From the IMG/VR virus record IMGVR_UViG_2850784384_000004: a stretch of DNA of 37,979 nt; one strand, 5' to 3'. Both the position numbers and the translations under genes were made by a program. Numbering within the stretch: position 1 is the stretch's first letter; every line of letters begins with the position of its first letter. Of this stretch, positions 17,178 through 18,251 are shown piece after piece. This DNA is from a virus (Duplodnaviria; Heunggongvirae; Uroviricota; Caudoviricetes). Under the pieces are notes generated by a model that was not told the DNA's origin, did not search any database, and saw nothing but the letters and a program-made list of their open reading frames with translations.

Positions 17178-18074
17178 GCAAGCACCTTAAAATCACCATC
17201 ATACACTAAATCAGTAAGTTGGCAGCATTACCTGACCCGTTATCTAAAACAGAATTCAATGCATTAATGGAAAGTGAAAAAGGACAGAGCCAAAACTTGT
17301 GGAAATTTGCCGTTTACTCCGGGCTTCGTCACGGGGAACTGGCAGCTCTGGCGTGGGAGGATGTGGATTTCGAGAAGGGAATTGTGAATGTCAGAAGAAA
17401 CCTGACGATACTTGATATGTTCGGTCCCCCAAAAACAAATGCCGGGATCCGGACGGTAACATTACTGCAGCCGGCTCTTGAAGCACTGAAGGAGCAATAC
17501 AAACTGACCGGGCATCATCGCAAAAGCGAAATCACTTTTTATCATCGGGAGTACGGCAGAACTGAAAAACAAAAACTGCATTTTGTTTTCATGCCCAGGG
17601 TGTGTAACGAAAAACAGAAACCTTATTACTCGGTAAGCAGTTTGGGTACAAGATGGAATGCAGCAGTAAAACGTGCTGGTATTCGCCGCCGTAATCCGTA
17701 CCACACGCGACATACTTTTGCCTGCTGGCTGTTGACGGCAGGAGCGAACCCGGCATTTATAGCCAGCCAGATGGGGCATGAAACTGCGCAAATGGTGTAT
17801 GAAATTTACGGTATGTGGATTGATGACATGAACGACGAACAGATAGCCATGTTGAATGCGCGGTTATCGTAGTTGCAAAGTTTGCCCCCAATTTGCCCCA
17901 TTTAGTACCAGAGAACTGAAATAATGCAAGAAAATCAACAAATTACAAAGAAAGAACAATACGACCTGAACAAGTAAGGGCAAAAATCACAACTATCTGA
18001 CTCATAAGTATTTTATTTATTTTTCAATATGTTAAACATTATCAGCGACAACAATAAGCTACGATAACCCACTC

Positions 18075-18135
18075 TTTTTTGCCCCTTTTTTGCCCCTTTT
18101 TTGCCCCTTATACAGCGTTTTGCCCCATTTTTGCC
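18075..18135. repeat. tandem and dispersed TTTTTGCCCC repeats (3 perfect 11-bp units plus degenerate copies; two more copies at 17881-17900)
   Basis: CTTTTTTGCCCC x3 in tandem, then TTTTGCCCC and TTTTTGCCA; located between integrase 3-prime end and sitA promoter. Confidence 0.7.
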
Positions 18136-18251
18136 ATCAACAATTTTCCTCATAAAGTCATTTCAAAGCCTAATAGCTGCTCTACTTTTTTCCTCAATAT
18201 CATGTCGCCAGCAGGAAACAACCTAATCCCTGTTTTAGGCCTCAAAGCTGT

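Follow-up and report, generated by a model that had tools for sequence, protein, structure and literature searches.

A T-rich GCCCC repeat array upstream of sitA as part of a probable Rac-type phage attachment site

What purpose, if any, is served by an array of short direct repeats located between the remnant of an integrase gene and the sitABCD operon of a tailed phage? In the 37,979-nt stretch of DNA analysed here (the window), such repeats could belong to an integrase attachment site, could bind another recombination protein, could influence sit expression, or could be a feature of chance. The initial annotation had listed at least six direct copies of a (T)nGCCCC motif, three of them as perfect 11-bp tandem units, between the integrase and sitA. 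This T-rich GCCCC array and its position are confirmed: the integrase fragment ends at 17872, and sitA, the first gene of the sitABCD operon downstream, starts at 18345 according to the annotation of matching records. The exact 8-mer TTTGCCCC occurs nine times in the window, as compared to a mean of 1.77 copies in the shuffled window, and six of the nine are on the + strand in the array (17881, 17892, 18078, 18089, 18100 and 18119); the remaining three, in the other 37.7 kb (9341, 29785 and 36295), are on the minus strand, single and unpaired. The TGCCCC hexamers of the array start at 17883, 17894, 18080, 18091, 18102 and 18121 (+ strand) and are followed by a seventh, degenerate copy, TGCCAT, which starts at 18132 within TTTTTGCCAT (18127-18137). 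Their start-to-start spacings are 11 in the integrase-proximal group and 11, 11, 19 and 11 in the distal group, and Tandem Repeats Finder reports the segment 18074-18109 with period 11, 3.3 copies and 100% matches. No TGCCCC-N5-TGCCCC pair occurs elsewhere in the window on either strand.

The attachment site between intR and sitA

The window was compared with the attL site of Rac prophage (from intR to ttcA, E. coli MBT-5) and with its attR site (the uspF side, E. coli NEBExpress). It aligns with attL from the int stop codon to about position 17973 and with attR from about 17929 onward, and a block of about 45 bp, AAAATCAAcAAATTAcaAAGAAAGAACAATACgACCTGAACAA (about 17929-17973), is common to all three sequences, which diverge on opposite sides of the core, as expected for POP', BOP' and POB' sites. 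In relation to Rac of E. coli K-12 (IntR/XisR), the core block is the same, the proximal arm corresponds to that of attL, and the distal arm to that of attR. Results of this comparison indicate that positions 17873-18138 (+ strand) almost certainly represent a complete, unrecombined attP (POP') of about 265 bp, derived from a Rac-like lambdoid phage integrating at the 5' end of ttcA. Position 18138 can be regarded as the functional edge of this site, because at least five lineages change to unrelated flanking sequence directly past the last degenerate repeat. The core region is contained in a 26-bp block (17948-17973, + strand) shared by Rac attL and attR, and no second copy of this 26-mer was found in the window. 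It had been proposed that the array marks an island boundary with a matching motif at the other end; this was abandoned in favour of an unrecombined POP' junction with a single core, and, because the site is such a junction and not an island boundary, no matching half-site is expected elsewhere. Immediately beside the core, an inverted near-copy of the repeat, TTTTTGCCCTT, is present on the minus strand (17975-17986); it is kept in most Rac attR sequences, and in E. albertii (L041) GAGCAAAAA is found instead.

The core region overlaps a mini-ORF, MQENQQITKKEQYDLNK* (17924-17977, + strand), which, on the basis of its sequence and of the attL/ttcA alignment, appears to be a phage-borne surrogate of the ttcA 5' end. 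It resembles the first 17 codons of ttcA and, in the orphan attP, ends at a TAA codon just beyond the core. The attL of Rac has been located inside ttcA, and the ttcA 5' surrogate described for Rac (Liu et al. 2015, PMC4632033) is the one present in the window; integration would exchange the 5' end of the host ttcA for this mini-ORF. The window differs from Rac in that its two halves are joined as attP beside sitABCD, in that it carries three tandem units and not two, and in the truncation of its int gene by IS1. The paper on the Rac att sites gives no description of arm repeats (PMC4632033).

The repeated motif is present on both arms of the predicted attP, always on the same strand: there are two copies of TGCCCC on the proximal arm and, on the distal arm, four copies and a degenerate one. 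The int-proximal pair (17883-17888 and 17894-17899, i.e., 17883-17899, + strand) has the 11-bp spacing, and its columns are invariant in an alignment with seven diverged phage attPs, which is described below. The distal arm begins with the three perfect 11-bp units (18074-18109, + strand; TGCCCC at 18080, 18091 and 18102), of which the units at 18091 and 18102 align with the distal pair of relatives, and ends with an outer pair at the attP edge (18121-18137, + strand), formed by TGCCCC at 18121 and TGCCAT at 18132, 11 bp apart. Between the proximal pair and the core, there is an IHF-like site, AATCAACAAATTA (17933-17945, + strand), which matches the consensus WATCAANNNNTTR perfectly; it is a consensus match, of which the TCA..T columns are invariant across the eight diverged attPs. 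A second IHF-like site, TTTCAATATGTTA (18022-18034, + strand), with one mismatch and preceded by an A/T tract, is located on the distal arm, and its TTTTCAATATGTTA element is found also in the attP of 933W type. We infer from these matches that IHF would bind at both sites. Additionally, a 27-nt element, AAAATCGAYAAAKATCGTCCAGGAGCGC, was noticed about 90-120 nt past the int stop on the distal arm of phages with integrases about 43% identical to IntR (L043-L047 and L049; e.g., L045, 2108-2135), and at the same relative place the window contains a loosely similar sequence, AAAATCACAACTATCTGACTCATAAG (17981-18006). This element is a candidate excisionase or host-factor site.

The integrase gene that adjoins this site is incomplete. 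A copy of IS1 (16465-17232; thousands of IS1 matches at 99% identity, covering positions 66-833 of the query 16400-18400) abuts the integrase ORF and truncates intR, the 3' part of which remains at 17233-17872 (+ strand). The encoded fragment of the Rac-type tyrosine integrase is identical in 209 of 213 positions (98%) to residues 199-411 of IntR, which represent the catalytic domain. While full-length IntR contains the Arm-DNA-bind_2 domain (PF12167) at residues 5-69 (E = 3.8e-26) in addition to PF00589 (Phage_integrase), only the latter is recognized in the window copy, which indicates that the arm-binding and core-binding domains have been lost from it. An integrase gene encoding the N-terminal arm-binding domain does adjoin the site in the family in general. 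The earlier pairing of the array with the neighbouring integrase as its recombinase partner thus holds for the position of the gene and fails for this particular copy, and, since the adjacent intR was cut by IS1 and its arm-binding domain is gone, the attP appears to be a relic here. Relatives of solved structure were found for the catalytic and core-binding domains (Int protein entries, e.g., 6emy, and XerA) and none for the arm-binding domain.

The rest of the window represents an IS-riddled lambdoid prophage with gam, a truncated recE, genes of Rha and of tail-fibre proteins, Q, NinB and a YdaV-like loader. It contains also a gene of an IpaH-family T3SS effector (2942-4657), and this gene content points to Shigella or a near relative as the source of the DNA. 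The IS copies around the locus include IS1, an IS66-like element and repeated transposase ORFs of 272 aa and 279 aa; among the copies of transposase or IS ORFs are those at 533-1351, 11731-12549, 24746-25564 and 37161-37979. Between the tail fibre gene (21995-23276) and Q (26290-26964), the structural genes are missing, with an IS at the point of deletion.

Conservation of the paired repeats among integrase relatives

Prophages of Enterobacter, Erwinia, Hafnia, Raoultella, Citrobacter and Pantoea that encode Int proteins with 49-71% identity carry, in all cases but one, a TGCCCC-N5-TGCCCC pair 5-15 bp past the int stop, and in this group both the spacer and the flanks vary around the fixed proximal pair. 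The pair is kept also in a subgroup that has an unrelated core and occupies a different integration site, which precedes an rstB-like gene. A scan of viral contigs with an integrase profile provided data on the proximal arm only, as most of these contigs end at the int stop. In two loci with integrases about 70% identical (L024 of Pantoea sp. alder81 and L161), neither a TGCCCC pair nor ttcA was found downstream of int; the sequence past the int stop is unrelated and AT-rich there, and the att site may have been replaced or deleted.

Seven complete attPs of phages with Int about 43% identical (Tritos, CobraSix, RCIP0098, RothD, 933W-type phi367, FSL SP-016 and AsXd-1) have a pair at the end of int and a second pair on the same strand about 200-208 bp downstream. 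In the alignment of these seven sites with that of the window, 33 of the 301 columns are invariant; 23 of the 33 are within the four TGCCCC hexamers, and the others are mostly in the IHF-consensus site at window positions 17933-17945. The distal arm of 933W type retains the Rac layout of two pairs, with spacings of 11, 20 and 11 as compared to 11, 19 and 11 in the window. In the case of integrases about 30% identical, the order pair-core-pair is kept and the motifs are altered to GTTCCCA or TGCCCTAA. In phage phiCTX, pairs of GTTCCCA with 11-bp spacing flank the annotated attP core on both sides and fall in the regions annotated with the repeats R1 and R2 in the GenBank record (AB008550). In Pseudomonas phage KT1, the pairs are of TGCCCTAA, and the stretch that separates them is similar to a tRNA gene 3' end, but ARAGORN did not predict a tRNA in it. 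Both the phiCTX and the KT1 integrase carry PF12167. The motif is, therefore, invariant down to about 43% integrase identity and changes at about 30%, i.e., it co-varies with the integrase. Within the Rac lineage itself, the entire distal arm is well conserved, so that the repeats do not stand out there from the sequence around them.

Recombination sites of a similar architecture are known in other phages. In lambda, the arm-type motif is C/AAGTCACTAT, and the lambda-type arm-binding domain differs from PF12167. Unlike those of lambda, the candidate sites described here have the TGCCCC motif, are all direct repeats arranged in pairs, and accompany an integrase with PF12167 as the arm-binding domain. 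The window attP resembles that of lambda in its size of about 265 bp, its location directly 3' of int, the central core, the non-core repeats on both arms, the distance of about one helical turn from each site to the next, and the matches to the IHF consensus between the arms and the core; lambda attP comprises the arm-type sites P1, P2 and P'1-P'3, the IHF sites and the core (PMC4880445). [quoted passage not shown] However, P2 and 186 differ in the integrase subgroup and the motif, and use Cox or Apl and not an excisionase of DUF1233. In phiCTX attP, 11-bp pairs flank the core, and the integrase shares the Arm-DNA-bind_2 domain with IntR, to which it is 31% identical; unlike in the window, the motif is GTTCCCA and not TGCCCC, and the phage is a P2-like myovirus of Pseudomonas. 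The DUF3596/PF12167 arm-binding domain, which IntR shares, defines the IntBPP-1 subgroup in the study of Smyshlyaev et al. (2021, PMC8138268), which classifies proteins as putative integrases and gives no arm-site sequences. Members of this subgroup include the integrases of the Stx2a phage and Gifsy-2, about 43% identical to IntR. Taken as a whole, the features of the site indicate a member of the Rac att family that is by its architecture a heterobivalent attP of lambda/P2 type, ordinary in its mechanism.

Integrase arm sites and alternative explanations

The suggestion of arm-type recombinase sites or of a relic attachment site, made at the start as one of two options, has gained strong support: the repeats make up both arms of a complete attP of Rac type, and their motif is conserved and co-varies with the integrase. 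We estimate the probability that the (T)nGCCCC repeats are arm-type sites bound by Int rather than by another protein at roughly 0.8. This interpretation is favoured because the motif is short, is repeated on both arms, is unlike the core, and is fixed together with the arm-binding domain and altered where that domain diverges. In the proposed mechanism, the N-terminal Arm-DNA-bind_2 domain of IntR would bind the repeats, which are one helical turn (11 bp) apart, while the C-terminal domains would hold the core (17948-17973). Bends at the IHF-like sites (17933-17945 and 18022-18034) would fold the arms back onto the core, and a single Int tetramer would link arms to core, similarly to lambda or P2. 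Ancestrally, the int-proximal arm would have carried one pair and the distal arm two, and the extra 11-bp unit of the window would be a rare duplicate produced by replication slippage. In cis, the site would now be inert, as IS1 took the parts of the adjacent intR that encode the arm-binding and core-binding domains. We found no binding study of IntR or its close relatives in the searchable literature, nor a description of arm sites for Rac/PF12167 ('IntBPP-1') integrases, of Stx or Gifsy arm sites or of the phiCTX repeats, in a literature from which most subscription journals are missing.

The most serious alternative is that the repeats are bound by the excisionase XisR (DUF1233) and not by the integrase, in which case a filament of Xis would be nucleated at the tandem head-to-tail sites and would bend the arm, in the manner of lambda Xis at X1-X1.5-X2. 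The 11-bp tandem spacing, typical of lambda Xis filaments, would suit this role; every phage of the TGCCCC type that was examined encodes a DUF1233 protein just upstream of int, and KT1 has a similar small ORF there. Moreover, XisR shifts in EMSA a Rac attR fragment containing the distal arm, although the whole attR fragment was used and the site on it was not mapped (PMC4632033). However, both arms carry pairs of the motif, which stand at the outer edges of attP, and one of these arms is the int-proximal one, which becomes part of attL. In lambda, the Xis sites are confined to a single arm, in the stretch that separates the arm sites from the core, a restriction to which the repeats studied here do not conform. 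The dedicated arm-binding domain of the integrase needs sites, and 7-mer counts indicated no other repeated motif in these attPs. Since DUF1233 is present in every enterobacterial member, co-occurrence does not separate Int from Xis there, and phiCTX is the only member informative in this respect: it keeps the pair-core-pair order, although the small ORF beside its int (orf43) gives no match to Pfam families, DUF1233 included, and its equivalent of Cox/Apl has been reported as unidentified (PMC3448106). Binding of XisR to the repeats is, therefore, improbable, and binding of Int is preferred, although comparative evidence by itself distinguishes the two kinds of site only in part.

Even less can be said for the explanation that the homopolymer-containing tandem is a contingency locus in which slipped-strand changes of the unit number alter the expression of sitABCD, which we consider very improbable. 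In its favour, the unit number does vary: among 46 loci from viral, metagenomic and genome collections, there are two units in 41, one in three and three in two, and the two alleles of three copies, in the window and in L076, are independent, as they belong to different lineages. Some assemblies contain a collapsed array. At the intact attP junctions of S. flexneri SFBU1023 (L031), E. coli ECMA0423 (L032) and E. albertii (L041), the distal arm consists of one TGCCCC and TGCCA; such one-copy arms may be a result of collapse by deletion between repeats, and several of these assemblies look error-rich. Many small indels were observed also in L018 and L019, of the same accession series as the group of L031, L032 and L041, and sequencing error is a possible cause of the collapsed arms. 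A promoter-like match at 18131-18158 (TTGCCA-16-TAAAGT) shares bases with the last degenerate repeat. On the other side, with exactly two units in 41 of 46 loci, the array is much less polymorphic than true contingency repeats, and promoter-like matches are at the chance level (2 vs. 2.0 expected from shuffling), for which reason a promoter inside the repeats was rejected. The likely regulatory region of sitA (18251-18344, + strand) is outside attP, as indicated by its sequence and a palindrome search: a Fur-box-like sequence, ttaatgataattattttca (about 18253-18275), and a perfect palindrome of MntR type, AAACATAGC-N4-GCTATGTTT (18291-18312), both of which we take to be such boxes by their resemblance to the consensus sequences, are upstream of sitA and more than 110 bp downstream of the repeats, which end at 18138. 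The MntR-type palindrome was also scored as a 'terminator-like' hairpin. The sit module occurs without the repeats beside other integrases of many phages (phage 21, lambda-like phages) and on plasmids, its homology there beginning only at about 18130-18148, and Rac prophages without sit carry the same repeats. Neither a high copy-number polymorphism nor a repeat that travels with the regulated gene was thus found, and the proposal of slipped-strand variation affecting the sit promoter region is not borne out. The comparison of repeat number that had been recommended did reveal variation (one, two or three units), but around a near-fixed value of two: the array seems able to slip but is essentially fixed at a pair, as elsewhere in the family, and the third unit of the window appears, by comparison with these loci, to be a rare variant. 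The last explanation, a chance low-complexity feature without function, is hardly credible. The Poisson estimate for six TGCCCC in 266 nt is about 1e-10; the three tandem units may be a single duplication event and hence not independent occurrences, but when this triple is scored as one event, leaving four independent copies, the estimate is still about 8e-7. The motif and its 11-bp pairing are, moreover, invariant among attPs with integrases only about 43% identical, and this conservation in relatives has effectively refuted the explanation by chance already. A search of Rfam with positions 17700-18450 gave no match at E <= 1, and an RNA element in this region was rejected on that basis.

Origin of the junction and its meaning for the family

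Our search for similar arrangements indicates how an unrecombined attP could have come to lie beside sitABCD. The int'-attP-sitA arrangement of the window recurs in E. coli H22, with 95.7% identity over 486 bp. Its left part reads uspF, a sit' fragment, an int' fragment, attP and sitABCD, and is followed by tail, head and lysis genes, racR, recET, xisR, full-length intR, attL and ttcA. This order is the one expected if two prophages had integrated in tandem and most of the first copy had then been deleted, with POP' as the junction between the two copies. In H22 (L001, 17827-20013, and L084), a frameshifted fragment of a second sit permease gene and an int fragment precede attP, and the prophage downstream, which is intact, has the anti-phage genes iteAS in addition to sitABCD. 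The gene order of the window matches that of H22, with early genes and int' on the left and the sit, tail fibre, Q, nin and replication genes on the right; neither ttcA nor uspF is present in the window. By analogy to E. coli H22, we infer that the attP of the window would have persisted unrecombined as the junction of two tandem Rac-like prophages, or as an equivalent remnant with the phage gene order. Intact attP junctions are found also in several viral and metagenome contigs.

In the searchable literature, the Stx-phage and Salmonella-phage integrases of this family are described as putative only, and no mapped arm sites were found for them. The TGCCCC-N5-TGCCCC pairs have, in our estimation, an even chance of being a so far undescribed arm-site code of the whole Arm-DNA-bind_2 (DUF3596, 'IntBPP-1') subgroup, which includes the integrases of 933W-type and other Stx phages, of Salmonella phages of Gifsy-2/Fels-1 type, and of Klebsiella and Enterobacter phages. 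If this is true, attP boundaries and the cross-reactivity of co-resident prophages would be predictable from sequence alone, and orphan attPs would remain substrates for full-length integrases of the IntR family acting in trans; such a use of orphan attPs could, in turn, drive rearrangements in Shigella and E. coli.

The odd repeat array is explained as a leftover phage attachment site, and the Shigella sit island would be the junction region of Rac-like prophage remnants and not a regulatory switch for sit. The comparison yields an arm-site consensus and a pair-core-pair layout for a family that includes the integrases of Shiga-toxin phages and of Salmonella virulence phages. As the same code appears to hold for the integrases of Stx phages and those of Gifsy type, it may be of modest usefulness: the consensus would aid the computational delimiting of attP, attL and attR sites, and would help to assess which prophages of the same host could mobilise one another or cause mutual rearrangements.
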